From a virus: a stretch of DNA of 64,000 bases. The stretch lies in IMG/VR virus record IMGVR_UViG_3300045988_095445; one strand, given 5' to 3'. The first letter of the stretch is position 1, and every line of letters begins with the position of its first letter. A model generated the notes under the pieces. The model saw only the letters and a list, made by a program, of their open reading frames with translations. It was not told the DNA's origin and ran no database searches. Shown here one piece after another: positions 15,754 through 58,100 of the stretch. Both the position numbers and the translations under genes were made by a program.

Positions 15754-15780
15754 TATGGGTGATAAAGGAGGAAAAGGATT

Positions 15781-18700: not shown

Positions 18701-21700
18701 CTCGTTAGTTGGCTAAAGCGTATGGTTTAGAAGGCAGTGCATTAGCTAGACTAAGTGGATAGTATGAAGATTATAATAGTGTTTTAAAAGCTGCTCAAGA
18801 AGCTCAAAGAAGAGAACTTTAGGAAACTTTGTAGTCCCAAGAAGAAGCGTTACGTGCGAATGAAACTCTCATTCTTGAAACCGCGAGAGAGGGCGTGGGC
18901 CACGTATATTTTGGTGGAAATTATGAGGGGTCTTTTACTGGTTTTAATGATTTTTGGAATGGCACCGAAGAAGATACTGCATCTAATATTCTTCTCAATA
19001 ATGTGGACGCTTTATATAGTAGTTGGAATGACAATGTAATTGGCGGAAGAAGAAACTTAGCTTTTTCTATAGACCCAAATAATACAGAAGAATTAATTAA
19101 TTTTTATGATCAATTAAATAATGCTATTAATTTGATGAATAATAGCATGACTGTTTCGGAAAGAGGAGCATCTGGACTTTATAATGCTGCTGTTGAGTGG
19201 CGAGATAAAATGGAAGAGGTTGTCACTCAATATAAAGAAACTAAAGAGAGTATAAATGTTATTCGGGTATAGCTTGGAGAGTTTAATAATTAGACTATTA
19301 CCGATGATCAAGTATCAAGTTTAGCGTAGTATAAAATTTGGGTTAACGAAGTTACAGAGGCGCTCACTTCTGCTGGATATGAAGGCGAAGAATTAAACGA
19401 TATAATCAATGATTTAGTATCTACTTCTCTGAATCCTGATATTAGTGGCTTTAAAGATATTTATGACGCAATTTTAGAGGTTAAAGAATTAGTCAATGAT
19501 GAAGAATTAAAAAGTAATCTTGAATCTATTTTTACAGATGAAAATTATGATACTTCTGTATTAAATTTATTAAATTGGGGTGCTTTAACATAGGAGACTT
19601 TTTAGGATGCCTATGACAGTGCTAAAAAATATGCTGATGTTATTTCCGAAGTTAAAAACACAACAGAATCTTTAACTACTGCACAATCTGCCTTAGAAAC
19701 TCTTGGAGATAGAGATTTAGATCGAGAAGAATTAGAATCACTTTCTAAAACTGTTGATTGGGGAAATCAAGAAAAAGGAATTATTGATTTTAATTAGTTC
19801 CTTGCTATGACTTTAGTTGAACAATAGAGTTATTTATAGAGGATTATAAATGAGTCCTATTAGGCTGTCAATAATAGATTAATAGATTAGATTAGTGAAG
19901 CAAAAAAGAGAATAACTGAGCAATAGGATATTTTAAATCAATATAGCGATTCTGAATTAGAACATGCAGAAAAAGTTGTTTATGCTTGGGAACAAGTTCG
20001 AGAAGCGTATAATGATTATCAAGGTAGCTTAAATGGCGGAGAAGAATTTAATCTTGATAATTATACGATTGATTGGGATTTGTTAGGTGAAAATTTTGAT
20101 TGGGAATCTTTTAAAACCGAAACTGCGGATAACGTAGCTAGTGCATTTGAGTATGGGACAAAAGAAGCTCAAGATAAAATTGATACTGTAACTTTAGCAG
20201 AGTAGCTAATTAGTAGTTTATAGGATGATATAGATTCTAGCACAGCTTAGTTACAAATAAATGCAGAATTAAATTTTTAGAATCAATTAGATTAGATTGA
20301 AAATTCCGTTGACGGAATTGTAAGTGTATTCGATGCTATTTCTGATGGAGTAAGCTAGACTACCAATGAAGCTGGAGAACAAGTTTGGAGTTTTAGTAGA
20401 GAAGCAGCTAAGGCTATTGAATCTATCTATCCAGGTTTTATAGCTAACGCGGAATTATTAAGGGATGGTACATTTGCTTTAACAGATGAGATGTATCAAG
20501 CATTTTATAATAGTTCTTAGGGGCAATTAGCTGTTGATGCTGATACCAAATCTAATATGCTTCAAAATCTTATTTCTCTTTTAGAGGCTAAACGAGGAGA
20601 GGCTGAAGCTTCGCTTAAGATCGCTGATCAGCTAGCTTCTGGAGAATTAACTATAAACGAATTATCAGATGAGCAGAAGAGAACTTTATTAGCGGGATAT
20701 GTAAATGCTTAGAATCTTGCTAATGGAGAAATGTTAGATGATTAGGTCAATAGTTTAACCGCACAAGATACAAATTAGTAGACTTTATGGACTAATGTTA
20801 GCGAGTATTCTGCTTAGGGCGCGCAGAACATGAGTACTAATGTATAGTTAAATACTCAAAATGTTCTTGCTAATCTTGAAAAAATTAGAGATGCGGCATA
20901 TGCTACTGGAATTCAAGTATCTCAAATAGGAACTGATAATGTTACTAAGCAAGATTTTGATACTTCTGCTGTTTCTTTTGATAGTTCGGCTGCAACAACA
21001 ATAGATACGAGTAACGCTGATGATTTCTTAAATTCTTTAACTGCAAATTTAGATGTAGAACCTGTAACCGCAGACGATTTAAATATTTATGGTGATGCTA
21101 GTGAGGCACTTGAAGCTAAGCAATCTTAGGCAGTTGGAGAAGCGCTAAGGGCCATTTATTAGGGGAGTATTGATGGGTATAATGAGGCTATAGCAGCAGC
21201 AAAAATAGCCTAGAGCAAATTATTAGATTCTATTGATGGAGCTATAGAAGGGGTAAAGGGAAGTTCAAGTGGCGGAGATAATGAAGGCACTAAGTATGAC
21301 GAAGAAGATGAAAAGACTCTAAAGGATATTGAAGATAGATACCATGAAATAACTCGCGAAATTGAGAATTAGAACGATTTATTAGATGATATTGGAAATA
21401 ATATAGATAGAGCCTATGGCGCCAATAAACTTCAAGCATACTAGAGAGAACTTCAAGAATTAGAGAAATAGCAAGCTAATTATAACAAACTACTTAATGA
21501 AGCTGAAACTTATCTTACAAAAGACTAGGCAGATCTTCAAGGGTTGTTTAATAATTCTCTTATTTTTGATGAAAATGGAGAAATTGAAGGTTATCAAAGT
21601 GTTCTTCAATCTATAATAGATGATTATAATAATAATTTCTTGGCAGATTATAATGCTTTTTTAGTTACCTTTAGTAATCTTACTAAAGATGAATAGGAAG

Positions 21701-24507
21701 CTAGATAGGCAGAATATGATAGTTGGCAGTTACAAAAGGAAGCTGCTGATGAATTATTCCAAGCTCGTTAGGATGCTCTCGCCCAATATGAAGAAACTCT
21801 TGACAAAATTCAAGAAGTAAAGGATGAATAGGAAGAACTAGAGAGAAGCATCGCAGACAATAGATTGAGCTAGATTGAATATAAACTTGAAGTTGTAATA
21901 GAAATAAAAGATGCTAAAGATGCTGTTCGTGAATTAACTAAAAAGATTGCAGAATCATTTGGCGATGAATTAACTCATGGTATTGAAGTCGCTCGTATTG
22001 ATGAAAATAGTGTGAACGAAAATATAAAAATAATCAAGGATTATGAAGAAACACTTAAGAGTTATCAAGAAGAATTGGCTAACGCAACGGATGCAACCAA
22101 TATTGATGGAATTATAAGTAAAATATCTGATTTATAGGATAAAATAATTTCTACCGCAGAAGCTCTACTTGATTGGGTAGAAGGTCTTGAAGAAATGTTG
22201 CCAAATGCATTAGACGCTGCATCTGAAAGATTCGCTGAATTTACTGATCAACTTGACCATAATGAATCAGTTCTTGGACTTATAAAAGAATTGTATACAC
22301 TTTAGGGGGTTACATATAAAACCGAAGAAGGATTTGAATAGCTCCAAAAAGTAAGCGAAGAAACAATGAAAGCTCAAATAGCAAATGCGCAGTTAAATAA
22401 ATAGTGGTACGACGGTATTAAATAGGAACTTTTAGAAGCTTAGAGTGCGTTAGATGCGTTAGACGGCGATGAAACAGATCCGGCATATGATGGTTTAAAA
22501 GCTAATCGAGATGCATTATTAGAAGAATATAATGAAGCTCAATAGGCGATGTTAAGTTCCGCGCAAGCCGCTATGGAAACTGCACAAGAGATGTATACTT
22601 AGGCTATTGAAAGAGCCGTATACGAATTTGGATAGGCGGTTTCTGGCGGAGTTGGCTTAGATTTGCTACAAGACAAGTTCGATCATTATATTGAGCAAGA
22701 AGATAGATATTTAGATAAAGTAAATGAAGCATATGAAGTATCTTCTTGGTATAATAAACTTCAATAGGATATTGATAAAGCCACTAATTCTAAAATGAAA
22801 GATTAGTTGAAATAGTTACAAGAAGAAATTGATATTCGTAGAGAGAATAATACTTTATCTGAATATGATCTAGAAATTCTTGAAGCTAAGTATAATGTTC
22901 TTTAGGCTCAGATGGCTCTTGAAGATGCTCAAAATGCAAAGAATCAACTTAGATTAGTAAGAGATAGTCAAGGTAATTGGAATTATCAATATACCGCAGA
23001 TGCGAGTTAGATAGCAGATGCGGAATAGAATTTACTTGATGCAGAGAATGAATGGTATAATATAGCTAAACAATAGGTTGAAGATGTTACCGGAGAAATT
23101 ATTTCTACTTGGCAGGAATGTCAGGATAAAATAAAAGAGATTTATTCTGATATGACCTTGACTGATGAGGAAAGATCTGCCCGCGCGCAAGAAATCTATT
23201 CTTATTATACGCAGAAGGTTAAGGATCTAGAGAACGAAAAACAGATCGCTATTTAGGATATGACCGAAGCCGGTAATAAAGCCTTAATTGATATGGCTAT
23301 TGTTGCGGGAGACAAGGTAAGTGATCTAACTGGAATTACAAGTCAAGAAATTCAGGATATTATAGCCAACTCTGGCTCTAGTATTATTGATTTGTTATTA
23401 TCCGATAATGAATAGATTCAAGATATAGTTGGAAGTAATACAAAACTTATTGATTTATTTGATAATGTTTTTGCAAAAGATCTTGCTAATATGACTTCTA
23501 ATGCTGGAAATTTTGAAGATTTTCTATCTAAAGCCATGGACGAAGCAAGTGAAGCAATGGAAGATTATCAAACTACTGTCTCTGGAGTGGCTGATTAGAC
23601 TGGAACAAGCCTTGATGATTTAGAAGGTTATCTTGATGATGTTACAACTTCTACAGAGTTATGTTCTGATGCGGGATCAGAAGCTGTCACTTAGATGTTA
23701 GAATAGATAAGCACTATTCAAGATTTAAGTCAAGAATATTTAGACATGGCTGAATCAGTTAGAGAATATATAAGGGCTCTTGAGGAGGCTGCTAGAGCAG
23801 CTGGAAATACAATAGAAAGCGCTGGAGGAATAGATAAAGATGATTTACCTCCCGCTAATTCAGATCAATCTTCTGATAATAACTCTAGCAATAGTAATAG
23901 CGGATCTTCCAGTGGAGGGGCTGGAAGTGGCAATGGAATCCCAGAAGTAGGAGACGAAGTCATTTATACTGGTGGAACTTATTATCATGATTCTTATGGC
24001 ACAGATCCAGCAGGTAGACGTGGACCCGGTAAGAAAGTTAAAATAACTAATATAGCTAAAGGCAGACCATATCCGATTCATGTATAGTCTAATAATTCTG
24101 CATATGGCTGGTTAAAAGAAAGTCAAATAAGCGGATTTGATACAGGAGGTTATACTGGAGAATTTGATAATGCTAAATTAGCTTTCTTACACGAAAAAGA
24201 GTTAGTTTTAAATCAAGAAGATACGAAAAATATTCTCGCGGCGGTTTCTGCTATAAGAGCTTTTGAACCTAGTTTTATAGCTTCTATAGAGAAAGCGCTT
24301 GATGGAAATGCACTATCTATTTCTAATCTTATGGCATCAAGATTAGGATCTAATACTTAGATTACTCCAGCAGATAACACAGTTGAACCGTATATAAATA
24401 TTGAGCGAGTTGAGTTCCCAAATGCGACATCTTCTGATGAAATTCAAGATGCTATTCGTAGTTTAGCTGATGATGCTACTCAATGGGCAAATAGAAGAAA
24501 GGGATAA
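15781..24507 (+). CDS. tail tape measure protein (about 2909 aa)
   Basis: GTG start after AAAGGAGGAAAAGGATT. ORF-track fragments 16567.., 17155.., 18895.. and 23746.. are all in frame 1. Triplet reading is continuous to TAA at 24505-24507 with more than 100 in-frame TAGs and no TAA or TGA. The TMP core (EYYADVMVRLGADTASSSDEISEGIQQF..., around 16.5 kb), a hydrophobic TM segment around 18.2-18.5 kb, and long Q/E-rich coiled coils are present. Confidence 0.6.
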
Positions 24508-24558
24508 TAGGGGAGATTTCCTCCCCTATTATCCCTATGAGAAAAAGGAGGATAAATA

Positions 24559-27500
24559 ATGAATACTGCTTCTGAATCTATCTTTTAGACGATAGATATT
24601 CTAGTTGATAAAGCACTATCAAAATTAACTTATGATAAGACTATTTCAGCAGAGATTAGTAGTATTGTTAATCTTGATAGCGGAGAGTATAAAGTTAAAT
24701 ATTCTGGAAATATAGTTTCTGCTTTTGCGGATGATGTAAAAAAGCAGTATAAAGTAGGGGATACTGTATATGTTACTATTTCCCAGGATGATTTATCTGC
24801 AAGAAAAAGAATTGTTTGTAAGACAAATGAACAATCATTATCATATGGAGAGATGCTGTCGCTTTCTAATTCAATAATAGAAAAAAGCCCAACATTTGAT
24901 ACAATGTATGATTATGACAAAGATGCGGAAAGGGGCGTCGTAGCAGGCGCACCAGCAGATAGTGATTTAAGTTAGTAGATTATTTATAGTGGTAATGAAG
25001 AAGGATATCATGGACTATTCCAATAGTATGCAAATAACAATGAGCTTATTAGAATAAAAGCCTCTTTCTTAACTACTTTCCATTGTGAACACACCAAAGG
25101 AAATTATGGTTTAGATATATAGTTCTTTACAAAAAGTGGAGATATAGTTTCTTATAAGCTTGATTTAAGTTCTTTTAATGGAGACCCCTATCGCTTTTAG
25201 GTCTACAGCCCGCAATCTGTGGTTATTAAGGCTCAAAAAAATTATTTAACTGGACTTAAATAGATTAAGTTATTTGAAGAAAATTTTGTCTATGATCGTT
25301 ATGTGGAATCTGGTGTAGTTACAGATAAAGAGAATAGAACTGTACCTAACATTTTTGTAAAGGATATAGAGATTTAGTTTGTTGAACAGAAAGATTTAAC
25401 AGATAATTTATATTATTTAGATATTTCGACCCCGCAAGGAAATTCATTTACCAACGAGATCTCTTCTCTTGATTTAGTTGGTCGATTAATTTATTAGGGC
25501 GATAATATAATAGATGAACAAACTTGTAAATGTAAGTGGTTTGAGCGAGATGTAAGTGTTTTGTTAGGTAGCGATTCTTACGATAAAAATGGTGGTGTAG
25601 GATGGGCTCCCGTCACAGCGTCCGAGAGCAATACGATGACACTTAAAGCTGAGCAAGTGAAACATTAGAAGTAGTATAAATTAGTGGTTATATATAATGA
25701 TAGCGTAACATTGAGTGCGGAAGTAATGATATATAATTTAACAAGTAACTATGATTTTTAGCTTAAACAAACAACAGTAGGAGAAGATATCATCATTCAA
25801 GTTTAGAACAATGCGGATAACACCGTTCTTATTGGAGATTGGTATATGCTTTATCCAGATGGAAGCTATACAGCAGTTGGATTATAGCAAAATTCCATCA
25901 CAGTTACTAATTTGTTATTGTACTCTTCTGTCACTTTTATTTGTGGAGTTTATAATAAAGAACATACCGAGATTATCTCTGTATTAGAACATCTTGTCAC
26001 AAATAGCTCTTCTGAAGAAGATGTAACAATTACTTATAATGGAGAAGATACATTCAGATATGATGCAAATGGAGATATAGCTATTGAAGACGCTGAAAAA
26101 GAACGTACTCTTCAAGTTGTTTTAACTTGGAAAGATGGTGTAGGAACTTCTTATAAAGTAGAATGGATTGGTCCAGATGGAAAAGATATTACTAATTCAA
26201 GATATAATCCTAGCGAGTCTATGATTGAAAACCTCTGGGTTGACAATAGTAATATTTTACATTATACTATTAAGTAGAAGTATAAAGTTAATTTTAACAA
26301 TAATACTATCTTAGTTCGTATAATTACTATGGATGAGCAAGAATATTCTTTCCGAAAAGAAATTCTGTTCTTAAAAGATGGTGATTAGGGTACGAACGGT
26401 ACTACGTATGTAAGTGCTATTAGACCATTTGACCCTGACACTGGATTGAAACTATCTGGATTAACTCCATTAGTTTATAGAGATGAATCTTGGGTAAATG
26501 AATTACCTATAAGATGCTATGTATATAAAGATGGAGAATTAATCAATAATAATGGTAATTACACCCTATCTTATAAATGGACTGGTGTTAATATTGAATT
26601 GCGGGAAGGCGAGAATGATGACCGCAAAATAGCAAGTGGTACAACATAGTTGATCTCAAATCCCGCAGGTGGATATGTAAAAGTTTAGGTAACTATTAAT
26701 GACAATAAGAATAATAGAGCCTATGAAATTTACTGTAATTACCCTATTGATGTTGCTGTTAATTTTAGTGATGATGAATTAAATAATATTGATATTAGTT
26801 CTATTCCTTCTTATATTAAATATACTGCGTCTGGTGTTAATCCATCCTTTTATAGCAATAACATTGAATTTATTGTTAATAATTAGGATTATAGTCGCAA
26901 TATTTCTTCTCTTGTAAAAGAAATTTTAACAGTTGAAGAAAAAGATAATCTTTATTATCTTGAACCTGCATCTAGTTTTATTTTTGAAGATAATAGTATT
27001 GCTTTATTAAAATGTGAATACGAAGGAAAATATATCTACCATCCCGTTATTTTATATCTTGATACATATGGCAATGAGCTAATAAATGGATGGGATGGCA
27101 CATAGCTACAAATTGATGAAGAAAATGGTTAGTATATCTTAGCTCCATAGATTGGAGCAGGAGAGAAAGATAGTTTTAATCGTTTTACTGGTGTAGTTAT
27201 GGGAAAAGATAGCGTTCAAGATAAAATAGGTTTATATGGTTATAAAGCTGGAGTTAATACTTTTGGTTTAATGGAAAATGGAACAGCGTTTTTTGGAGCT
27301 AAAAGTGGTGGAGGATAGATCATTATTGATGGAACTTCAGCGAAGATTTATGGTGGAGGGAATTCTTCAGAAGAAGGTGGGGATGCCTCTAATGGAATGA
27401 CTATTACTCTTGCTGATCTTAAAGCAGATGGATCTACCGAAGCTATAAAGATTGGCGGAGGAGCTTTTACAGTAAAATATAATGGAACTGTAAAAGCCAC

Positions 27501-28473
27501 CAATGCAGAAGTTTCAGGGACTATTTACGCCTCTTCTGGTAAAATTGGAGGAACGAAAACAGGATCTAATGGTTGGACTATTGAAACCAATAGACTATAT
27601 AGCGGCTCTGGCTCAACGAGAGTTGAATTAAATAGCCAATCTCCAACCAATACTTCTACTCCTACTAATAATAATGATTTTGCTATTTGGGCAGGAAGTG
27701 CTACAGCATCAAGTGCTAAATTTTCTGTTTCTAAAGGCGGATTAATTACTGCTAAATAGGGAAATATTGGAGGTTGGATTCTTTCTTCTAATAAGTTAAC
27801 TAGTGATAATTATAGAACTGGAATAGCGAGCTCTGGTACTTATCGTTTTTGGGCAGGAGCTAGTTCTAGCAGTACGGCAGATAGACCAGTTTTCTCTGGA
27901 TCTTCTTACTTTTATGTTACTAGCTCTGGAGAAATGTAGTGTAAAAATGCAACGATTAATGGTTCAATTTATGCAGATGACGGTGAGATTGGTGGCTGGA
28001 TCATCAGTTCAAATAGAATTTCTGGAGGAAGAACTACACTATATTCAAATGGTAGAATTGTGTGTGATGATTTTGAATCAGACAATGTAGATATTAGCGG
28101 AGATATTAATGCAACTACTTTGACTTGTGATAATGGTGAGATTGGTGGCTGGATCATCAGTGAAAGCGGATTGGAAAATGGTGCCACAAGACTATATAAT
28201 GGTTTAGTTTAGACGAATCAAGTAGATATATTTTTAGATAATCGTTGGAGAAATAAGCTGGGAACTTTAGGATATGTTGAAGGAGAAGATGATTATGGTC
28301 CTACTGAGAATATTGGTATTCTTACTGAACGAGGAGATCATAGTATTATTTTAAAATCTTCTAGAAACATAGCTCTACGAACAGAAGGTGGCGGAATATG
28401 GATAATTGGAGGAAGTCTAAATGTAAATGTTTCTAAAGAAAATTAGCACGGTATCTATGCCCAATTTGCGTAA
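24559..28473 (+). CDS. large tail protein (about 1304 aa; distal-tail, tail-associated or receptor-binding candidate)
   Basis: ATG at 24559 after GAAAAAGGAGGATAAATA. ORF-track fragments 25912.., 26446.. and 27397.. are in one frame to TAA at 28471-28473. The C-terminus has GEIGGWIIS repeats encoded by a 27-bp perfect direct repeat. Confidence 0.5.
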
Positions 28474-38241: not shown

Positions 38242-38881
38242 AGTTTAATTCAATAGCTTTTAATTTATCTATTGAATCAGCTTCGAATATCTAAGTTTTA
38301 TATTCTTGCATTAAATGATATTTGGGATATACCGCATTTGAAATAGCTAAACTTAGAGCGGATAATTGCTCTAAACTCCATGGCACACATTCTTCGTGTC
38401 GAGCGTGCCACTCAAGCGTAGGATTTTCTACTTCAGCCGCGAGAGCGACTTGATATTGATTGAGATTTAAGCTAATCTCAGACTGGTCCTCCTACGTAAT
38501 TCCATATTCTTTTCCATCAACCCAAGTTAGTGGGTGGGTAGCAAGATACTCTGCGAATAGTTTCTTGTTTTCCTCTTGTTTGTCATACTTTGCCTAATCT
38601 AAATCAGAAGTGAATGTTCCATCTTCTTGATTATATATTGAATAATTAGGAGTAACATCTGATGGAATTGTTTCTATCTCTAATACTTTTACAGCATTAG
38701 ATTGATTTAATACATCGGCTTTAATTAGAGTATAATGTGTATCTCCATTTGAGCCGATAACCCCAGTTCCCTCTTCTTCCTCGCAGGCAACGACAATACC
38801 ATTTGAGGATTGCAGTTTAATGTAACGTGCTTCTGAAAGAATATCAACTACTACATTCTCTCTATTTAATAGAATATACAT
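38219..38881 (-). CDS. hypothetical protein (about 220 aa)
   Basis: ORF 38594..38881 is extended through 3 in-frame TAGs to TAA at 38219-38221. Its start overlaps the RT stop (TAATG). Confidence 0.4.
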
Positions 38882-40098
38882 TACTTTATTTCAACTCCTT
38901 TAAATAATGAACGAAAATAATTGTCCATATCTTGAATTATACAAAAACAAGTTCCTTTAGAAATATGTGCCCTCCAACCTTGATAGGATTTCTAAATTTC
39001 ATCTGTTGAAATTTTACCCTCTAGCCATAGCGCTTGCATTTTCTTCAACTTTCTGCGCTAATGAGCCACTTTCTTTTTAAAAGGAATTTGTATTATATGA
39101 TTAGTGTCTGTGAGATAAAAGTTCCACTTTAAGTATTTTAATGGAGCGTGACGTTTGCCGTCCGCGTGAATAGGAGAGATTCTAGTAATAGTAGTCTTTT
39201 TCTTATTCATCTTTAATCCTTGCTTATTTAAGCGAACTTCTATTCTCTTTTCACATTCGGCTAAGTATTGACTGTCATTGTGGAATAAATATAAATCATC
39301 CATATAACGACCATAATACTTTATATGTAACTCTTCTTTGATGAAGTGGTCAATTTCGTTCAATGCTAGCAATGCGAATAATTGTGATGTTTGACTTCCT
39401 AATCCAAGACTTTTATTATCATATTCATAGTATTTGCGGCCAGGCTTAAAATTAGTGGTACTAATTCTTGTGTATTTGTGCCGTTTACTAATATAATAAT
39501 CTTTTCCTGGTATGGGAGAGGAATCTTTTGTTAGCTTAAAAGAAAATGTATCTATTAAATAACAGCATAGCTGATAAATTCTTTTATCTTTTATCAAACG
39601 TTTAGCCGCTTTCTTTAAAGATTTATGGTCAATAGAATCAAAATATTTTTGAATATCAATTCTTAACCCATAAAAATCTTTTCCTAATCCATATTCTCTA
39701 TGAGCTTGTTGAAGGTGTTTCTTTACTCTTTTTAAAGCAAAGTCTATTCCTTTTCCTCTTAAAGTCGCACAATTATCGTAGATAAATCTAGGAGTTAATT
39801 CTGGTAATAAAACTTGTTCACATAACGCATTTTGTACCAGTCTGTCGTTGATATGACACGCTCTTATATCTCTTGGTTTGCCTCGTTCGATTATCGAAAA
39901 ACAACTAAACACAAGCTATTCGTATTCACACGCTCGCAGATCAGCTTCTGTTTTTAAAATTGTTTCTATCCTATTCTCTTCAAAATTAATTGTACTATCT
40001 TTCCATCGAACGTTTCGGCATACCTTATAAGACGCATCATACATAGCGTCAAAACTACAAAAACGCTCGAAAGCAGTATCTTGGTTTATTTCAGACAT
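38881..40098 (-). CDS. DGR reverse transcriptase
   Basis: ORFs 39916..40098, 39058..39912 and a further downstream segment are in frame through TAGs at 39916-18 and 39058-60, giving about 405 aa. RT motifs present are RGKPRDIRACHINDRLVQNAL, YGLRIDIQKYFDSIDH, the YMDD box (GRYMDDLYLF) and the DGR-type LGLGSQTSQ motif. Confidence 0.8.
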
Positions 40099-40407
40099 AC
40101 TTTCTCCTTATCATGTAGCTATAGTGGTAGCTACTCGAGCTCCACGTCTACAGTCTTACTTTATCCACTTTTTCAGTGAAATGGTTAAGTTCTCCTTAGA
40201 TGAAAAGGCAGATCTACCTATAGTATATTATTCGATAGTTGTAGAGCAAAGCTCTTTAACGGTCTCTCAATCTCTTCCCCACATAGTGGGTGCAATCCAG
40301 AGTAAACCTTAATTAGATGGATAATAATATACTCCGGGGTACTATTTAGGCGTTGCTCGTTTGCGCTGCTCCGCAGTTTAACTCGCAACATGATAGCTCC
40401 ATCTAAT

Positions 40408-40504
40408 CCGGCGCCAGACCGTTGCTGTTGTTGTAGTTGTTGTTGTTCGCAGATCCATCGTTGTTGACATTGCAAACGTTGTTCGAGTTGTTGTAGTTAC
40501 GGGA
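40408..40504 (-). repeat. DGR template repeat (TR), 97 bp
   Basis: It is 97 bp, near-identical to 41131..41227. All 11 mismatches are A in this copy (coding/minus strand) versus N in the other copy. Confidence 0.75.
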
Positions 40505-40537
40505 CCGAAAGATACAGAACTTAACCGCAGAAAAATA

Positions 40538-41032
40538 TTATCGACCTCTCCTATGGGTTTTAGGAGCCGAATATCTATGCTCGACTATAAGTTTATCTCT
40601 ATTTTTTCTATCTTGGATTGATTCTTTTACTTTCTTAGTCAATCTAGCTAGATGTTCAAAAGATCTTCTTTTCTTTTTGCTGTTTTGAGCATACTAATAA
40701 ATACATAGGTCGATTTGTCGAAATATACTATCACAATATTCAATCGCTTTATTGTGATATTCATTTCTTTTTGTAAGGGTTTCTTTATCTTTTAAGTTTA
40801 TCTTACACGCCTCATAGCAGCAAGCGTGTATACCCTTTCCGCGTTTAATTATATCGTACCCGAACGCTTGAAGAGGTTGACCCTCTCCAAGCAGTCCAGG
40901 TTTGCAGATTTGTTTTCCATCCTTATCAAATTCTCTAGGACGAGTTAAGACTAAAATGTAGCCAACCAATTCACGGGCTTTATAAAGACAGTCTTGTTTT
41001 GATAGGTGTCTATCCTTTACTTTTACAGACAT
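40538..41032 (-). CDS. DGR accessory variability determinant (Avd-like), with a basic C-terminal extension if the TAG is read through
   Basis: ORF 40694..41032 (112 aa, small basic helical protein) sits between VR and TR. It continues past a TAG to TAA near 40538. Confidence 0.55.
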
Positions 41033-41113
41033 TTAAAATTTCCCTCACTTGAATATATAATTTTTTTATTGGACAATTTAACCTTAACTGTCCCGAATTG
41101 TTATTTTGCTGTA

Positions 41114-42880
41114 TTATCCAATGACGAAAGCCGGCGCCAGACCGCGGCTGTTGTTGTAGTAGTAGCCGTACGCAGATCCATCGTTGTCGACATAGCAAAC
41201 GATGTTCGAGTTGTTGTAGTGACGGGAGCGTTCCCAATACAAATTCGTGTTACTCGTCAACGAACCATTGGCGTTCATATAGTATTTAACTCTAGTAGAG
41301 TTGCTTGTGTAGTAACTATATGGAGCATTATATCCCTATGTACACTCAGCCTTAGAAGTTGTACTGTTAGTAGTAGAAATAGAAGAATAAGAATCTAATC
41401 CCATTTCTCTTTCAGAAGGTAGCCATACTGTTTCATTATTATAAGTTACAGAACCATTTCTAGAACCATTAGTGCTAGGACAAGTACCTTTACTTACTGT
41501 TTTAATAGATGCTTTAGCACTACAATAATTATAGAAATTTTGGCATTGGGCTCTAGCATCTGATCCAATCCAAATCGCATCGTCACCAAACTAAAGAGCA
41601 TTGGGTAAAGTACCCGCAGTCTGGAAAGTTAAAGTTCCAGTTCCATCCTAATCAGCACCAATACAAATCATTGTAGCAGCATTAGCGCCAAGTACCGCAC
41701 TAGAAAGACTTACGAGTTTCTTTTTACCTACGCATTTCTTTCTTTCACTGGAAGAAGCCTTAGCTGCCCAGGTCTTTAATTCAGCCCACCACTTAGCATC
41801 ACCAGTAGCAGTTTCAGAACCCCACTCCCAATAGCTTGCTGTTACTGTAACAGTCTTGTTACCTGGAGCAGTATGGTTAGTTCCGGCCGCAACTTTAATA
41901 GTAATCGTAGTAGAAGAAATAGCCGTACTGCCATCACCTTTAATAGTAAGAATATTACCACTTAAAGAGAGGGTAAGACCGGTAACACTAGTTGGAGTAT
42001 AGCTAATAGCTCCATCTCCCGCGCGAGTAATAGTAACTTTAACGCCAGCACTATAATTATCTCCATCAAGAGCAACAGAAGTTGGATTTACAGTTAAACT
42101 ACCCGCGGCTTTATTAATAATCCAGTTTACATCAAGGTTATCGGTTGTCTTATCAGCCCATCTATAATTGCTCTTTAGAGTAAATGTAGCTGTATAAGTT
42201 CCTGCATTAGTAGCGGAAGTAGTTCCGCCAATCGTCATATAAGTGGTATTGAAATTATTCCAATAAGAAGTTCCACTTACTGATTGACTATTACCTGTAT
42301 AGGTAAGATTACTTTTCCAGGTTGGTTTAGCGACAGATTTACGCTCAACAGTTACCGTAAATTTCGCAGATTGAGTTACTTCATTCTCTGTATAAGAAAC
42401 AGTAATTTGCTAGCTGCCAACTGTAGTTAAGGATGTTGGTGAGCACGTATAACCTGTAACAGCCGCGCTTTTATTATCAGAGTAACTCGCTGTAACTACC
42501 ATTCCTGTTGTTTGAAGGGTGTCACCATATTCATAGGTCATCTTAGTTGGGTTAGTAGTAACCTGAATACTAAGAAGTTTATGAATAACAGTTACCTTCT
42601 AGGTAGTTTGACAAGTTTCACCGAGTTCTGAATAAGTAATAGTTACTTCAGTAACCTCATCTGTTAAAGGATTTGGAGTAACTTGATATCCAGTTACTTC
42701 TGCTGTTGTTACAATAACACCATACATGCCGTAAGATGCGGTAACTACCATTCCAGCAGGATTAAATGTGTCACCAGCAAGATAGCTTGTTTTATTAGGG
42801 GGAGTGGTTACTTCAATTTTTACAAGAGAAAGAGAGCCTCCACCTTTTCCACCCTACTCAGCTAAAATACATTTAGGCAA
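41114..42880 (-). CDS. DGR target protein with Big_2-type Ig-like repeats and a C-terminal C-type-lectin/DUF1566-like variable domain (likely receptor-binding fibre)
   Basis: TTG start after GAAGGAGGTAAACAA. It is continuous over 589 codons through 5 TAGs, including ORF 41648..42238. It has LAGDTFNPAGMVVTASY-type Ig repeats. Motif ETVWLPSEREMG resembles the DUF1566 WxLPT.EL motif. VR lies at the extreme C-terminus. Confidence 0.7.
41131..41227 (-). repeat. DGR variable repeat (VR) at the 3' end of the target gene
   Basis: It is 97 bp, matching the TR except at TR-adenine positions. It has a GC-rich 3' IMH-like end (GGTCTGGCGCCGG on the coding strand). It encodes ...RSRHYNNSNIVCYVDNDGSAYGYYYNNSRGLAPAFVIG*. 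Confidence 0.75.
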
Positions 42881-43056
42881 ATTGTTTACCTCCTTCTATC
42901 TAGCTATTGCTATAAACAAATCTAAATTACTAGATAGAAGGTCGAGGATGGAAGCGATCTTCGCTCCAGTCTTTTAGAAAGTCATTAACAATTTCCGAGA
43001 AAAAGTACACTTTTTAACAGGAAAAATACTTCTTCTGTCTAGATAACAAAAAATTG

Positions 43057-50896: not shown

Positions 50897-51235
50897 CTAT
50901 ATCACCCCTTTTGTATAATCAAAGAACGCATACATATCACATTTCTCTCCATGTAAAATCCAAATTTCTACAATATTTCCATTTATCTCTATTGCCTTGA
51001 TTTCTCCAAGTGTCTTAGAAACAGAAATAATCTCGCTTGCCATTTTATTTTTATTTACATCGTTTTCATAGGTAAATAAAGTAAAATATTTATTATCGTG
51101 ATTAAGCATCATATAATATCTAGAATTATTGGAATCTAAGAATGTGATAATATTTCTTTTAGCTTTCTCTAATTCAGCCTTTGTCATTTTTGGAAGGGAG
51201 GCATATCCCGCTTGATTTAGCTCGTATAAAGTCAT
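50897..51235 (-). CDS. hypothetical protein
   Basis: Intact ORF from the track. Confidence 0.4.
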   Translation of the reverse strand: MTLYELNQAGYASLPKMTKAELEKAKRNIITFLDSNNSRYYMMLNHDNKYFTLFTYENDVNKNKMASEIISVSKTLGEIKAIEINGNIVEIWILHGEKCDMYAFFDYTKGVI

Positions 51236-51271
51236 ATCTAGTCCTCCATTTCTTTTAATATAATATCATAA

Positions 51272-51814
51272 TTATTTTATTCTGTCAACAATAATTGCAC
51301 CAATAGCATTGCCTATTGTAACTACTATTAAAAATAATATTACATCAATAGAAAGCACACCTGCGGCCAAAGTGTAACAAAGATCTGCAATACAGTGTTC
51401 TCCGCCGAATAATATAAAACCTGTTACGCAGACTGGCACCATATAATCTTTATTTCTTTTAAACGAGGATACTGCCGAATATATAAATATACCACAAACC
51501 ATCCCCTTTAAGAAAACTAAATATAGTGGGATTGCGATCTTAGCAGAGACTAGAGATAGAGCGGCTGCGTGCGGAAAGGCTAAGATCCCGCACGCTCCAA
51601 TAATATTTCCTATTAAAATAATAAGATTATCTTTTATATCATCTTTGCTCTTGATATAACCAACCGAACCCGTAAATAATTTAAACTACATATTTAATAT
51701 AGTTAGTAGGCCAATGGAAAACATAATAGCTCCAACTATACCTCCAACAGATAAGTAGATATAGCTAGCTATTGCTATCATTATTCCTCCAAAAATACTT
51801 TTTATAAAGTTCAT
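51272..51814 (-). CDS. FNT (formate/nitrite transporter)-family channel-like protein, short form
   Basis: ORF 51272..51502 extends upstream through one TAG to an ATG overlapping the NrdG stop, giving 180 aa. FocA-like motifs present are KLFTGS, LIGNIIGA, FGGEHCIAD and VVTIGNAIGAII. Confidence 0.5.
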
Positions 51815-52284
51815 TTTAGGTAGATTATTTTTTGATTACGACTCCCTCTAAGCGGTTCCGTAATATCTCTTTCATGTTCAATATACGGCCCATCAATTAG
51901 CACATCAACTAATTGAAGTATATTCTAAATAACTGTATCTGTTGAATTTTTTAAATTTTCATATAAATATCCAGTCCATAAATAAACTTTTAAATCAGGA
52001 ATTGTTTCTTTTGCGGTTTGTATTACTAGATGGGTTAGAAATGTATTTTCTGGACATAGTGGCTCGCCACCCATAACGCATAAAGTTCTTTTAACTCCAT
52101 TCGCAGTGAGTCCTTCTAAGATTGAATTAAGAATTTCATGAGTAAATTCTTTTCCACCATCAAAATCCCAAGTCTCTTGATTATGACACCCTTTACATTT
52201 ATGGGGGCATCCTTGAGTAAAGAAACTCAAGGATACTCCAGGAGCAGCGGCGAAATCATTCTTTATAATACCTGCGTATTTCAT
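51811..52284 (-). CDS. nrdG: anaerobic ribonucleotide reductase activating protein (radical SAM)
   Basis: ORF 51925..52284 has the CPHKCKGC cluster. Reading through the TAG at 51925-51927 adds the conserved C-terminal ...LVDVLIDGPYIEHERDITEPLRGSRNQKII motif. Confidence 0.8.
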
Positions 52285-54533
52285 TCCATATACCCCACGT
52301 GTTTAACTCTATTATTTACTTCATCTTGTTTTCCTTTATTAAAAGCAGTCTTATAGTTGCCAGTTAAATAACCCGTTACCCTTCTTAACTGCTGAATCTC
52401 CTTACTACCACATTGAGGACATTTATCATTAAATTCGCCAGTATATCCACAATTCAGACAGGTGTCACATGGAACATTTATTGCAAAGTATGGAATATCT
52501 TTGTCCATAGCATAATTTACTAATGTTTCCATAGCATCAATATTCTTCTCCATACCAGTATCCAGTTCAACATAAGTAATACAACCAGCAGAAGAATATC
52601 CAGTTAATTGACTTTCAATATCAATTTTATCAAATGGAGAGATTTGATGCCATACTGGTACGTGCATAGAGTTAGTAAAGAATTCTCTATCGCTTACATT
52701 AGGAATAATACCATACTTATCACGGAATTTTTTAAGAGAGGTATAGCAAAGATTCTCGGCTGGAGTATAATATACTCCAAAATTAAGCCTATATTTTTCT
52801 TTATACTCTGCGCATCTATCTTTGAATAACTGCTCTATTCTTTTTGCTAATTTCATACCCTCTGGTTCGGTATGGTCACACCCAATAAGAATTTGTAAAG
52901 TTTCTGCTAATCCAATTTGTCCAAGACTCAACGTACCATGTTGTAAAGCGCTTCGAGTAGAAATTCCATCATATCCAGCCATTAAGCCATTCTCATACAT
53001 GAATTTTGCTGAATCCGCAGGTTGCGCGCAAATGTATTCAAATCTTTCAAGAAGCATATCTTTTGCTTCTTCAATTTTAATATTTAAAAGTTTCATAAAT
53101 CTTTCAATACCAATTTGGGTTCTTTCTTCTTGAGACAAATTTTTAATTTCATTCCAATTATCATTGTTATCTAAAGTGACAGCTTCCATAGCTATTGTTG
53201 GCATTATAATAGTAACAGGACAAATATTTCCTCTACCATCTTTCTATTGCTTTAAGCCATTAATATCAAACCCGTTAGCAGTTCTACATCCCATTGTAGA
53301 GAAATATGTACTTGGATCATTTACATCATAACCAGCATTACCAGACCAATCTACATTAGCATAGTTAGGATATAATCTAGTAGCGGTAGACTTTAATGCC
53401 AATCTAAACAAATCATAATTGGGGTCTCCCGGTTTTCTGTTTACGCCTTTCATACACTGGAAAATTCCACAAGGGAAAATTGAAGTTTTATGAAGTCTGC
53501 CAAGTCCTTCAATAGAAACTTCAAGAAGAGCTTTAGTCACCATTCTTCCTTCTGGAAGAGTACAAGTTCCATAATTAATAGAAGTAAATGGAAGTTGATT
53601 ACCAGAACGAGATTGAAGAGTATTTAGATTATGATACATACCCTCAACCGCTTGATGAACTTCTTTTTCTGTCATGGCAATAGCATATGAATATGCGTTT
53701 TTAAATTCCTTATAAATAGAATCTTCAATGGATAATTGATTACTTAATCTATCATCCATGCTAATGACTTGTTCAACATATGTTAATCCATCTATATAAT
53801 GTTTATAGAAACTCTTTCGTACATATGGAACCATAGTCCAATCTAAGTGAGTAGCAGATACTCCACCAAATTGTTGTAAACTTTGTAGTTGGAAAATAAC
53901 TGCAACGAGTTGGAAAGCGGTATTTACAGAACCAGCTGGGCGTACATCAGTTTGTCTAGTATTAAATCCTTTTGCAAGTAAATCATCGAAAGGAATAGAA
54001 AGACAGTTGTGCATACCTACGGCATAAGCATTTAAATCATGAATGTAAATCTCATTATTTTCATGATTAGCTCTAGATTTACTAGAAACTAAGTAATCAA
54101 GAGCATATTTTTTCATCTGTAAATCTGAGGCTGCCCCAACTCGTCCACCAAATGACATTTCATCGACGTTTGCATTTTGATTTTCAATATCAGAACCTTG
54201 CAATTTTGCAGAAAAGGCTTTAATAAAATCATCCTATCCATTTCTTGCAATTTCTCTTTTATATCTATATCTAATATATTCTTTAGCTACATCTCTACGT
54301 TCAGATTTCATAAGATAATCTTCAACCATATCCTGAATTTTTTCGACAGAAATTATATCATCAGAAGTCTTTGCTGTATATTTAATTTCATCTGCAATAT
54401 CTTCCGCAGTATCGTTTTCATATAATTTTCCATCTACCTCTATAAATGCCTTATTTATGGCATTAATAATACGCTCTTTATCAAAAGGTACTAAAATACC
54501 ACTTCTCTTTCTTACTTGAAGCATATATAACAA
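52281..54533 (-). CDS. nrdD: anaerobic ribonucleoside-triphosphate reductase (class III)
   Basis: The ATP-cone ORF (54234..54533), core ORF (53244..54203) and C-terminal ORF (52281..53204) are all in one frame. They are joined by TAGs at 54234-36 and 53244-46. The C-terminal Zn-ribbon CxxC..CxxC and glycyl-radical region RRVTGYLTG are present. Confidence 0.85.
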
Positions 54534-54590: not shown

Positions 54591-55163
54591 TTAATAAAAT
54601 TGTCCAAATATAGTATCAACGGCGACATCAATATCTTCTAAGGTGTCGTTTTTAAGAGTTTTATATTTTATATCATCAAGGAAATAAAAGTCCTCCGCAT
54701 CTGCTTTGTATCTTCTAATAATTTCATTTACGTCAGGATTTTCTTCTCTATTTAACTATCTTAATAATCTCTATTTACCTGCGGCCCGCACATAAAATAC
54801 ATAAAGCTCAATATTGTCATCTTCTTGTAGACATCTTACTCCTTCAGGGTTAAAGACCCCTATATTTATTTTGTCTATTGTTAGACTTTCTCTATCTGTA
54901 CCATAATGCCAATCATTAAATTCTGTTGCTTCTAGCATATCTCCATTAAGAACTTTTTTTGTAAATTCATCAATAGATAGAAAATAATAATTAACTCCTT
55001 CTTTTTCTCCTTCTCGCGGAGGGCGTGTAGTACAACTGATAATTTCATTGAAATAAGAAGGATATTTCTCCATAATACTATGGAGAATAGTATCCTTCCC
55101 ACTTCCTGCTTCACCCATTAACGCTACTATCTTCATCCTTTTCTTCTCCTTGTTTTCTTTCAC
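54591..55163 (-). CDS. gmk: guanylate kinase
   Basis: P-loop GEAGSGKDT and the TTRPPREGE motif are present. The frame continues through TAGs at 54771-73 and 54756-58 to TAA at 54591-93, adding a typical C-terminal helix (KNDTLEDIDVAVDTI). The start is possibly at an internal MKIVAL. Confidence 0.75.
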
Positions 55164-58100
55164 TTCTTAAAATTAAGTCTGTACCATTGACAATTTCATC
55201 AATGTGATAAAGTTGATGACCTCCAGAACTTGCATATTTCTTTGTTACAAATTCATCTCCGCGTCTAATTCCCTGAACAACAATCATATTACCTCTATTA
55301 AACCATGATTTTTCTATGACCTTTTTTGTGCCATCTTTGTTTCTTTGGAAAGTTTGCTTATCAAACAACGCGAAGTATTCTTGTCTAAACTTAACTGCTA
55401 CAATTCCAGTAGCGGTAAGAAGATATACCGTGCTTTTTACTTTATTTTTTGCAATACAAGTTCCGCAAATCTTATACAGCTTATAGATAGGAATTAATGA
55501 AGCACCTTTTTTAAATACCTTATCTACTTGAGGTTCTTCTGGTAAACTAAAGAAGTCTACAAAACCATACTTACTATTGTTGATATTGGATAATTCATGG
55601 CCATGATAATAAAAGCACAAAGATTCCATTTCCCAAGAAGAAATATTACCAGAAGCATATTTCTTCCAATCTTCCATAAAGATTGCAGTATTTAAATCAT
55701 CTAAAATCTTTTCTTTGTTTTCTGCAATCCATGCTCTAAATACATCCATGTAACTTTGATAAACTTTATCCCAAGATTTTATATCAATATACCAAATTAA
55801 ATTATCTGTTTCAAGCAGCTTCTCACAATCAATTTCAACTAAGAAGGTTATTGCTCTTTCATCTAGCTTATACTTATCTGCATTATACTAGTCTTTACAT
55901 TCTGCTTTTAAATATCTATTAAACTCATAAACTCTTTTTGGCATTATAAATCTTTCTTCATCAGGAATGAGATTATATCTCATTAATCCAGGCAGATTTT
56001 GTAAAGTAATCCTTTTTTTCTTGTCACAGGTAATCCATATATACTGAATCATCGCTTCCATTCTAGGATGGAATTGATCAAATCCTCCGCCCTTAATTAA
56101 GGAAATCATTGCTTGTTTATTTGGATGTACTTTATTAAGGAAGTCAATTAAAGATACATAGGGGCGATTATCAACAATAGTTTTAATTAAATCATTGTTT
56201 ACGTTAGATAACCCTTTTAAACCAAACAAGATTTGATTATGTTCAACATCTGGTTTAAAACCAAAATCAGAATAGTTAATGTCAACCAAAGACACTTTTA
56301 TACCAGCATTACGAATTTCTCCAATGGCTTTAGCAATCTTGGTATAATCTGATTGTTCTCCTTCTTCTTCATTAATGGCACCGCTATTGACGATAAGATA
56401 TGCTGTATTCCAATATACTGGGTTAAAATGGGTAGCAAGATAGAGAGTTTGCATACCAATAAAGCTATAAGCAAGAGCATGGATAATGGAGAAACTATAG
56501 CCCATTTGCGGGCCGATGCCATAATTCCATACATATTGTCCTAATGCTGGAGACTTTGCAGAATTTAAAACTTTTTCTCTTAATTCTGGAATTTTGTTCA
56601 TTTGTTTCTTACCAACTATTTTTCTTGCAGTATTAGCTTCAGCTAACGTAAATCCGCAAATATTTGGGTCTTGAAGCATAGTCATCATTTGTTCTTGGCT
56701 GGGAGGCACACCATAAGAACGTAAGAAATGAGGTTCAAGAATTTTTTGTTCTTCTTTTGTTAAACCCTGCTGATCCATTTCTTTATACCAAAGAGAAATA
56801 TTATTTTTAAAACGAACATACTTCTCCATTGGAGTTTCTGCACCCTTTTCCGCAGTCATTAGTCTCATCAATCCATTAGCGTCCGCCATTTCGTGCGGAT
56901 TTTGAGGCTTAATCTTTTTTGCTGCTTGAGCGCCAACACTAGAATCAAATTGGAAACAGCCAAGAACATCTCCATTGGCAAGAGCATCCCACATTTTTTT
57001 ATCGTCTTGCGGGAGGACAGATGGATGAAGGTATTTATTATAGACTTCACGCAATGTTAAATCTTTTTCAATAGCGCCATCTTTTTGCAATAGCTCAATA
57101 GTTTGAATAATAATATCCTGTACTGCTGTAAGCAAGAAATCGTACTTGACAGATCCAGCGGCTTCTTGATCATGAAGATCCCATTGAGTAATTAATGCTC
57201 CTTTTGGAGTTCTCATTACCGCGGCTGTATCAAAAATATTTTGATCAAATAAGATTACCCCAGAAGCGTGACTCGAACGTTTATTTACTAGTCCTTGAAT
57301 TCTAGTAATAATATCTAGTAATCCAGGATACTGATTCACAGTATTCACAAAAACTGAAACAGATTTGCGACCTTTTTCTGGATTACCATTAACCACATCC
57401 TCAATGGGCCATAGAAAACCTCTTTCTTGTGGAATAAGAGAACTCATATATTGAGCCATATCTACATCAATCCCGTCAGGATAATCTTCTGAACGATAGC
57501 CTCGACAGGCTGTTAAAATCGCAGATTTAGTTCCTTCTGTGCCAAAAGTACAAACTTGTACTAAGCCAAGTTCTCCTCGTTCTTTTCTAATCTCCGCGAA
57601 AATCTTTTGAATCTTTGATGGTGCCAAATCTAGGTCAATATCACCAAGTTCAGTTCTTTCATCGTTAATATAGCGCCAGAAAGGAAGATCCCATTCAATC
57701 GGATCTAGTTGAGTGATTCCAAGAAGATAATGGTTCAAAGCAGCACAAGCTGATCCTCGCCCCGCGCCTACGGTACTTCCGCAATTCCAGAACAAATCTA
57801 CATAGTGTTTTAGAGTATTTGGATATGCGAACATACAAGTTCCTAGTTTTTCTCCAATCACTCTCTTTACTCTTGCTTCTTCTTCTAATCTTTCAAGATA
57901 TCTAGGATCATTAAATAAACCTTTTTTCTGCAAAGCAATAATACATTCATTTACCCAATATCTTTCTTGAATATTATCGCTCCAAATCAAACTAGATAGA
58001 ACAGGATATTTATCTTCCCACTGATATGGTACAAACCCTTTTTTATAATCTGTTACTTCTACTTCTGGAATTGATTGATGACGTTCAAGAGAATAAAATT

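Follow-up and report, generated by a model that had tools for sequence, protein, structure and literature searches.

Can a phage carry, in one operon with its anaerobic ribonucleotide reductase (RNR), a channel for the formate that serves this enzyme as reductant? The question is raised by a gut phage, IMG/VR virus record IMGVR_UViG_3300045988_095445, of which we analysed a stretch of 64,000 nucleotides (hereafter the window). On its minus strand, the genes nrdD and nrdG of a class III RNR are followed by an open reading frame (ORF) for a 180-residue membrane protein, which a preliminary description of the locus had likened to formate channels of the FNT family. We consider it probable that this ORF (51814..51272) is a phage-borne formate channel that feeds the class III RNR as a coupled third cistron. 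The operon comprises the following features:

52281..54533, minus strand: nrdD, class III (anaerobic) RNR with an ATP-cone, predicted to be of the formate-requiring type (Pfam); in-frame TAGs at 54236..54234 and 53246..53244
51811..52284, minus strand: nrdG, radical-SAM activase of NrdD, 157 aa (TIGR02491, Pfam); in-frame TAG at 51927..51925
51272..51814, minus strand: predicted minimal FNT-family channel gene, 180 aa, third cistron (PF01226)
51686..51688, minus strand: TAG at codon 43 of the FNT gene, in frame and decoded as sense (codons of relatives and alignment)

The FNT protein and its reading frame

On sequence criteria, the 180-residue protein is a true member of the FNT family (PF01226; TC 1.A.16). 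It matches PF01226 with an E-value of 1.2e-15 and 58 bits (gathering score 34.6), with residues 3-175 spanning profile positions 22-232 of 240. The motifs that had first suggested this identity, LFTGS (residues 46-50), IGNIIG, IGNAIG and FGGEHCIAD, are all present and align with those of solved channels, Thr48 with ELFTG/ELFTS and His140 with FEHSVAN/FEHCIAN. Searched against the PDB, the family profile retrieved FNT channels only, namely VcFocA (3kly, 1.5e-12), HSC (3tdp, 2e-11), NirC, EcFocA, LCIA and PfFNT.

For the fold, we modelled P0007, a full-length relative that is 74% identical to the window protein, with AlphaFold2 and 51 aligned sequences (pLDDT 97.2, pTM 0.91). The model features nine helices (2-22, 24-41, 46-52, 56-78, 82-92, 96-118, 124-135, 140-150 and 155-177), which correspond to transmembrane helix (TM) 1, TM2a, the Omega helix/TM2b, TM3, a short connecting helix, TM4, TM5a, TM5b and TM6. 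Together they build a six-TM protomer in which TM2 is broken by the Omega loop and TM5 at the histidine (S) loop, with the family motifs in the pore. Foldseek scores normalised by the query (TMq) were 0.90 for HSC, 0.88 for VcFocA and 0.85 for both NirC and EcFocA. The protein is thus predicted to be a complete minimal six-TM protomer with trimmed loops and termini, and the half-channel that its short length had suggested is ruled out by the model together with the match to full protomers.

The residues that line the pore are also retained. L46, T48, K92, F133 and H140 align with L82, T84, K148, F194 and the FEHS histidine of HSC; PDB entries 3tdx, 3te1, 3te0 and 3tds carry mutations at the first four of these HSC positions. 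Three of the corresponding codons are:

51671..51673, minus strand: Thr48, the invariant Thr of LFTG, counterpart of HSC T84 and of the LFT-motif Thr in VcFocA (alignments A1, A2 and A3)
51539..51541, minus strand: Lys92, at least 90% conserved, aligned with HSC K148 and the Lys of VcFocA 'QHKLHH' (alignments)
51395..51397, minus strand: His140, the invariant central pore His (GEHCIAD), equivalent to the His of FEHS/FEHC (all alignments)

In alignments of 29-63 homologues, all five residues vary little or not at all, despite a mean column identity of about 33% in the family, a pattern expected from selection for conduction. This bears on the idea that the protein does not transport at all and instead serves as a membrane anchor or scaffold for NrdD/NrdG, or as a membrane-perturbing or exclusion protein that has kept the FNT fold. 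Such roles are frequent among small phage membrane proteins, and FocA physically binds a glycyl-radical enzyme; however, every pore residue that we checked is conserved, and the helix that mediates the contact between FocA and PflB is absent from the phage protein. We therefore regard a non-transport role as very unlikely.

The full-length frame depends on how TAG is read. PHROG searches identified portal, virion structural and tail proteins in the window, establishing its phage identity, as well as a RecJ-like exonuclease, a Dda-like helicase, a reverse transcriptase, a guanylate kinase and a dUTPase. With TAG counted as sense, the frames that stay open for 100 codons or more sum to 76.5 kb; under code 11, the sum is 30.9 kb. 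The window comes from a phage with a recoded TAG (similar to genetic code 15), whose coding density is restored with TAG as a sense codon. Four in-frame TAGs fall in the operon (nrdD codons 100 and 430, nrdG codon 120, and codon 43 of the FNT gene), and at the DNA level relatives replace them with CAA/CAG or other sense codons. Relatives hold CAA or CAG at the two nrdD sites, which suggests the amino acid that is inserted at TAG. Codon 43 of the FNT gene is TAG, GGA, AGA, GAT, GAA, AAT or AAC in relatives; across 78 homologues, the residues on either side of it are conserved and the TAG column itself holds Q, G, D, N, E or K. The sense codons and the two-sided conservation indicate that the extension upstream of the TAG, which the preliminary description had obtained by reading through this single codon, is real.

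If TAG instead terminated, the locus would yield a 42-residue peptide and a separate C-terminal fragment, or would be a decaying remnant. Code 11 indeed splits the frame into ORFs of 42 and 76 residues, and we found no suppressor tRNA within the 64-kb window. Against this stand the sense reading of TAG across the window, the sense codons at position 43 in relatives, the conservation of both halves in the 78 homologues, and the folding of the full-length relative as one confident FNT protomer, which together make the lack of a 180-residue product hardly credible.

TAG usage differs sharply between the two blocks of the window. Structural or late-looking genes on the plus strand (1-37740) contain 2-4 TAGs per 100 codons, whereas the replication genes on the minus strand (37783-63998) contain about 0.1-0.5. 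A single frame of 2,914 codons on the plus strand (15766-24507), which is followed by one of 1,306 codons (24556-28473), holds 100 in-frame TAGs; the gene for the DNA polymerase III alpha subunit (PolIII-alpha) has one TAG in 1,305 codons.

Both internal junctions of the operon are overlaps of the ATGA type. At the nrdD/nrdG junction (GAATGAAA), the ATG of nrdG overlaps the TGA of nrdD, and at the nrdG/FNT junction (AAATGAAC), the ATG of the FNT gene overlaps the TGA of nrdG, in agreement with the translational coupling that had been proposed from the overlap with the NrdG stop. No Shine-Dalgarno sequence lies within 12 nt upstream of the FNT ATG, which is consistent with coupling by termination and reinitiation. 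Gene callers preferred Met12 as the start (the 169-residue P0001-P0006), with GGAGGA 3 nt upstream; we judged this start less likely, because residues 1-11 are conserved in homologues that lack Met at position 12 and form half of TM1. For nrdD, the ATG at 54524 (AAGGAG 9 nt upstream) is a more likely start than the TTG at 54533.

A scan of the region for promoters and terminators gave matches no commoner than in shuffled sequence, so that the operon boundaries are drawn from the overlaps only. One near-consensus promoter-like site on the minus strand (51260-51288; TTGACA, 17-nt spacer, TATTAT, upstream TG) overlaps the last FNT codons and precedes the next gene (GGAGGA before the ATG at 51235), and the small genes downstream of the FNT gene may have a promoter of their own; such matches occur region-wide at the shuffled level. 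In some members of the phage clade described below, an additional recoded ORF of about 211 residues without a Pfam match is located between nrdG and the FNT gene (L001, 5382-6017; L069-L086) and breaks the ATGA coupling there.

A formate-type reductase and the proposed supply route

The window NrdD matched PF13597 (5.5e-146) and contains ATP-cone and Gly_radical domains. NrdG scored 138.3 bits against TIGR02491 (cut-off 126.1) and 1.5e-36 against Pfam Fer4_12, with CPHKCKGC as its CxxxCxxC radical-SAM cluster motif. Among solved structures, the NrdD of Prevotella copri (8p23, 5.9e-120) is closest to the window NrdD, with the S. thermophilus and T4 enzymes next (T4, 1.8e-71); the thioredoxin-type NrdD of T. 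maritima matched at 4e-12. In vitro, the P. copri enzyme depends on formate; at the position of the third cysteine of thioredoxin-type enzymes, it has Asn435 (PMC11226230). In the window protein, HNC175, TMGC417R, GRGN436 and RVTG721Y align with P. copri C171, C416, N435 and G711; a C-terminal Zn-Cys4 (CxxC...CxxC) is present, and the sixth beta-strand carries an Asn rather than the third Cys. By these residues, the window NrdD is assigned to the formate-requiring type, reportedly NrdD1 in the sense of Wei et al., which agrees with the earlier statement that formate is the reductant of this RNR. Enzymes of this type consume one formate, oxidised to CO2, for each deoxynucleotide made.

The nrdD and dnaE genes of these phages are often interrupted. 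Gaps of about 0.7-1.1 kb lie inside or after nrdD in L011, L012, L119, L120, L125 and L143, a LAGLIDADG gene is located beside a split PolIII gene in L009 (42-1037), and an HNH endonuclease is found inside the nrdD of phage TR-TP1 (L104). This suggests homing introns or inteins in nrdD and dnaE.

In the mechanism that we propose, NrdD, its activase and the channel would be made together from one operon, and since each operon gene contains a TAG, full-length products would appear only once TAG is read as sense. The FNT protein would insert in the host cytoplasmic membrane, most likely as the usual FNT pentamer, and would let formate/formic acid cross between the medium and the cytoplasm, with formate as its presumed physiological substrate. 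NrdD, by oxidising formate to CO2, would provide a sink. In the gut, where the external pH is mildly acidic, acid-conducting FNT channels favour uptake, as is established for FocA. Together, the sink and the external pH would make the net flux inward. The supply of reductant could thereby be kept up while the genome of about 146 kb replicates in an anaerobic host, and the channel would presumably raise the output of deoxynucleoside triphosphates (dNTPs). This supply would be independent of formate production by the host and of FocA gating. As the FocA N-terminal helix is missing, the phage channel would escape control by the host PflB.

The same fold could serve as an exit valve that vents formate made by the host pyruvate formate-lyase (PFL) or dissipates gradients, and would thus control cytoplasmic pH or redirect fermentation. 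FNT channels are bidirectional, and relatives of the phage protein encoded in pfl operons probably export. Export is reported to be the main role of FocA in fermenting E. coli, and formate to be toxic at high level (PMC5600444). Yet venting the substrate of a co-translated enzyme makes little sense, NrdD already is a sink for formate, and the phage protein has no N-terminal helix of the kind through which PflB controls efflux by FocA. We consider an exit valve distinctly improbable.

Neighbourhoods of short FNT genes

Every member that we found of the clade to which the window belongs carries NrdD-NrdG-FNT (L001-4, L009-13, L048-L087, L095 and L110-117; full-length contigs of 144-149 kb). The gene order in all members recovered is PolIII-alpha, guanylate kinase, NrdD, NrdG, FNT, three small genes and dUTPase, and the FNT gene is still in place in L009, whose NrdD is just 33% identical. 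In the window, the genes adjoining the operon are:

54591..55166, minus strand: guanylate-kinase-like gene upstream of nrdD, conserved backbone (PHROG 1815 guanylate kinase, 5.3e-34); synteny kept in L001, L002, L009 and L110-L160
55111..59025, minus strand: PolIII-alpha-like gene further upstream, conserved backbone (PHP, DNA_pol3_alpha and HHH_6 in the syntenic genes of L001 and L002); its DNA matches dnaE genes of Enterococcus and SPbeta-like phages
50897..51235, minus strand: 112-aa gene without a PHROG match, downstream neighbour of the FNT gene, marking the slot in which the FNT gene is present or absent (a homologue follows nrdG in sister phages that lack the FNT gene)

Outside the clade, genes for short FNTs that are 32-47% identical to the window protein lie no more than 3 kb from nrdD or nrdG, in other arrangements, and the NrdDs at these loci (23-52% identical) all have formate-type motifs:

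L008: FNT-NrdG
L016: NrdD-FNT-NrdG, on a phage-like contig
L093: FNT-NrdD-NrdG, on a viral contig of 233 kb
L094: NrdD-NrdG-FNT
L103: short FNT no more than 3 kb from nrdD or nrdG
L034: FNT-NrdD-NrdG, on an apparently bacterial contig, judged from the RecX and RNase HII that follow

Overall, an FNT gene lies beside nrdD/nrdG in at least five lineages with differing gene orders and very divergent NrdDs. As a rough guide, the two adjoin in about half of the distinct phage lineages sampled, where chance adjacency in a genome of 100-200 kb might be expected at a few percent. Since alignment A2 was the query for the genome scan, both the genome sample and the viral sample are biased towards relatives of the phage clade.

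Relatives of the protein also occur beside PFL. Two bacterial contigs from metagenome-assembled genomes (MAGs) encode PflB-PflA-FNT (L042) and FNT-PflB-PflA (L036), with PFL-like scores of 1.9e-221 and 2e-218, respectively, plus radical-SAM activases. Formate is the sole reactant common to NrdD and PFL, which is the strongest argument that the short FNT family carries formate. In both contigs, PFL is split inside the glycyl-radical domain, into 712 and 88 residues in L042 (4803-7232) and 703 and 89 residues in L036 (2417-5139); the smaller fragment, which contains the RVSGYAV glycine loop, looks like an integral GrcA-like 'spare part'.

The family itself is extensive. In an exhaustive profile search, 3,700 clusters passed E<=1e-3, of which 593 also passed E<=1e-30, and nearly all of the best 150 clusters are 180-220 aa in size. 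NCBI names, where given, are the generic 'formate/nitrite transporter family protein'. A rough neighbour-joining tree, in which ORF L018 is over-extended and the outgroups are partial, was used only for the scatter of the NrdD-linked FNTs, which are dispersed across it; the short FNTs stand apart in it from HSC and VcFocA. The phage protein thus belongs to a large, uncharacterised family of FNTs of 180-220 residues.

Conservation of the neighbourhood has a limit, however. It holds throughout the clade but not in sister phages, which a search seeded with NrdG recovered on contigs of 97-201 kb. These share the same backbone, with NrdDs 70-73% and NrdGs about 66% identical, and have no FNT gene within 5 kb; a homologue of the 112-aa gene follows about 250 nt after nrdG. 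The FNT gene is therefore an optional cassette of one gene, present or absent at the 3' end of the operon, and not an obligatory partner of NrdD.

These sister phages weigh against a formate channel dedicated to NrdD, as their NrdD works without an FNT, and so do several further observations. At the phage FNT loci L005-7, L088-92, L096-99, L102 and L105-109, we found no NrdD within 7-8 kb and no glycyl-radical enzyme nearby, and most bacterial short-FNT loci likewise have no glycyl-radical enzyme nearby. P0079 (WP_281513169.1; L105-L109), which is recorded under Bacteroides acidifaciens, is a counter-example to obligatory NrdD linkage and a possible clue to the host. Indications of the host conflict (MAG bins of Eubacterium/Oscillospiraceae/Clostridium, DNA similarity to Thomasclavelia and Enterococcus phages, a NrdD nearest to that of Prevotella copri, and B. 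acidifaciens for P0079). Formate-type NrdDs are usual in Firmicutes and phages, which makes the match of enzyme type necessary but not discriminating. FNT channels are, moreover, poorly selective and promiscuous. In structure, it is the hydrosulfide channel HSC rather than FocA that matches best, and the protein scored 16.1 bits in the FocA equivalog model TIGR04060 (cut-off 290.1) and 24.1 bits in TIGR00790 fnt (cut-off 232.3). The FocA N-terminal helix of about 30 residues is absent: the phage protein begins at VcFocA/EcFocA residue ~31-34, and TM1 starts at its residue 2. This helix has been implicated in the contact with PflB (PMC5600444). Also absent is the Y-L-R motif straight after TM6, which FocA requires for translocation (PMC5572259); the phage C-terminus reads ...GAIIVDRIK, and an Arg after TM6 (R178) is found in the close clade only. 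Judged by these scores and elements, the protein is not a FocA equivalog.

P0079, 53% identical to the window protein, has an N-terminal extension of 60 residues. Its surroundings are phage-like (RnlB antitoxin, NADAR, LemA, CCA-adding enzyme, ABC permease, PspA and Sak recombinase), without a NrdD within 8 kb. P0076 is flanked by ADP-ribosylglycohydrolase and methyltransferase genes.

Several of these points would suit a functional FNT for another small anion (nitrite, hydrosulfide, lactate, acetate or bicarbonate), or for anion/pH homeostasis, that came to lie behind nrdG by the chance landing of a mobile cassette. The promiscuity of the fold, whose solved relatives include HSC, NirC, LCIA and PfFNT, is in line with this, as are the leading place of HSC among the structural matches, the presence/absence behaviour and the close relatives in phage contexts that lack NrdD (P0079 by an RnlB antitoxin and an ABC permease; P0076). 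Chance landing does not, however, readily account for adjacency to nrdD/nrdG in at least five lineages with varied orders and divergent NrdDs, for its persistence through the swap of NrdD in L009, for the ATGA coupling that links FNT synthesis to NrdG, or for relatives beside pflB-pflA, formate being the one reactant that both systems share. We hold another anion to be unlikely, though less so than the other alternatives, and favour a formate channel for NrdD whose benefit, given the sisters with the same backbone, probably depends on host or habitat. A bolder version would have the minimal FNT dock NrdD at the membrane, through a surface other than that used by FocA and PflB, and pass external formate straight to the reductase; replication of these recoded phages, which are abundant in the gut, would then depend on luminal formate, and FNTs of 180-220 residues would be a general formate gate for PFL and NrdD in Firmicutes and phages. 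This version is speculative, and we rate its chances as low.

Related systems and other elements of the window

The arrangement mirrors the operon logic of focA-pflB-pflA in E. coli, and the FNT superfamily itself is well known. In both operons, an FNT channel accompanies a glycyl-radical enzyme and its radical-SAM activase, formate is a reactant, and the channels share their fold and the pore Thr, His and Lys. However, the phage partner NrdD consumes formate whereas PflB makes it; the phage order is enzyme, activase, channel, with nrdD/nrdG in place of the pyruvate formate-lyase genes; and the phage-encoded channel is about 100 residues shorter than FocA, contains a recoded TAG and lacks both the N-terminal helix and Y-L-R. 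HSC (FNT3; 3tdo, 3tdp and 3tds) of C. difficile is similar in structure (TMq up to 0.90, rmsd 2.4 A, about 25% identity), and its L82, T84, K148, F194 and central His are identical in the phage FNT. Unlike the latter, it has 268 residues, an N-terminal helix (K16) and longer loops; a genomic link to sulfite reduction was not seen in the window. Short FNTs of Clostridia and Bacilli share the compact architecture, some of them beside pflB-pflA (L036, L042) or nrdD-nrdG (L034), but most are not next to a glycyl-radical enzyme, while the window copy is on a phage and coupled to nrdG.

Among phages, T4 and Thomasclavelia phage TR-TP1 have a formate-type NrdD with NrdG, and the TR-TP1 nrdD is about 70% identical in DNA; neither module includes an FNT gene (for TR-TP1, the nearest cultured phage by nrdD, according to its annotation). 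The sole match in the viral structure database BFVD is A0A8S5NWF3 of Siphoviridae sp. ctTnV63, a short FNT of 191 residues from an uncultured gut phage, auto-named 'Formate/nitrite transporter', which is only distantly related to the window protein (E-value 2.8e-07, TMq 0.79, 29% identity). The FNT protein has no PHROG family; 50,697 GenBank phage records gave one weak match, an unannotated fragment of 4.6 kb, and no close tblastn match; and in the open-access literature we found no paper that ties FNT, FocA or PF01226 to nrdDG or to phages. The pairing of FNT with NrdDG is therefore not a standard phage module, as had been supposed, and we found no published description of it.

That phages carry auxiliary genes for nucleotide supply is familiar; a phage channel that admits the reductant needed by a ribonucleotide reductase is not. 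If our reading is correct, formate supply, beyond the level of the enzyme, would limit dNTP synthesis in anaerobic infections, and the sister phages with and without the FNT gene would offer a natural experiment. With 180 residues, the protein is close to the smallest complete FNT protomer, and since the N- and C-terminal elements that gate FocA are missing, it should be useful for dissecting permeation in FNTs, which are drug targets in Plasmodium. The analysis also draws attention to a large family of short FNTs, as yet uncharacterised, beside PFL and NrdD in gut Firmicutes.

Elsewhere on the minus strand, the window contains a diversity-generating retroelement (38881-42973). Its reverse transcriptase is encoded at 38881..40107 (PHROG 1423, 3.4e-83), and its template repeat of 103 nt (40405-40507) is 87% identical to a variable repeat (41128-41230) located at the 3' end of a repeat-rich target gene of 620 residues (41114..42973), with mismatches at template adenines.

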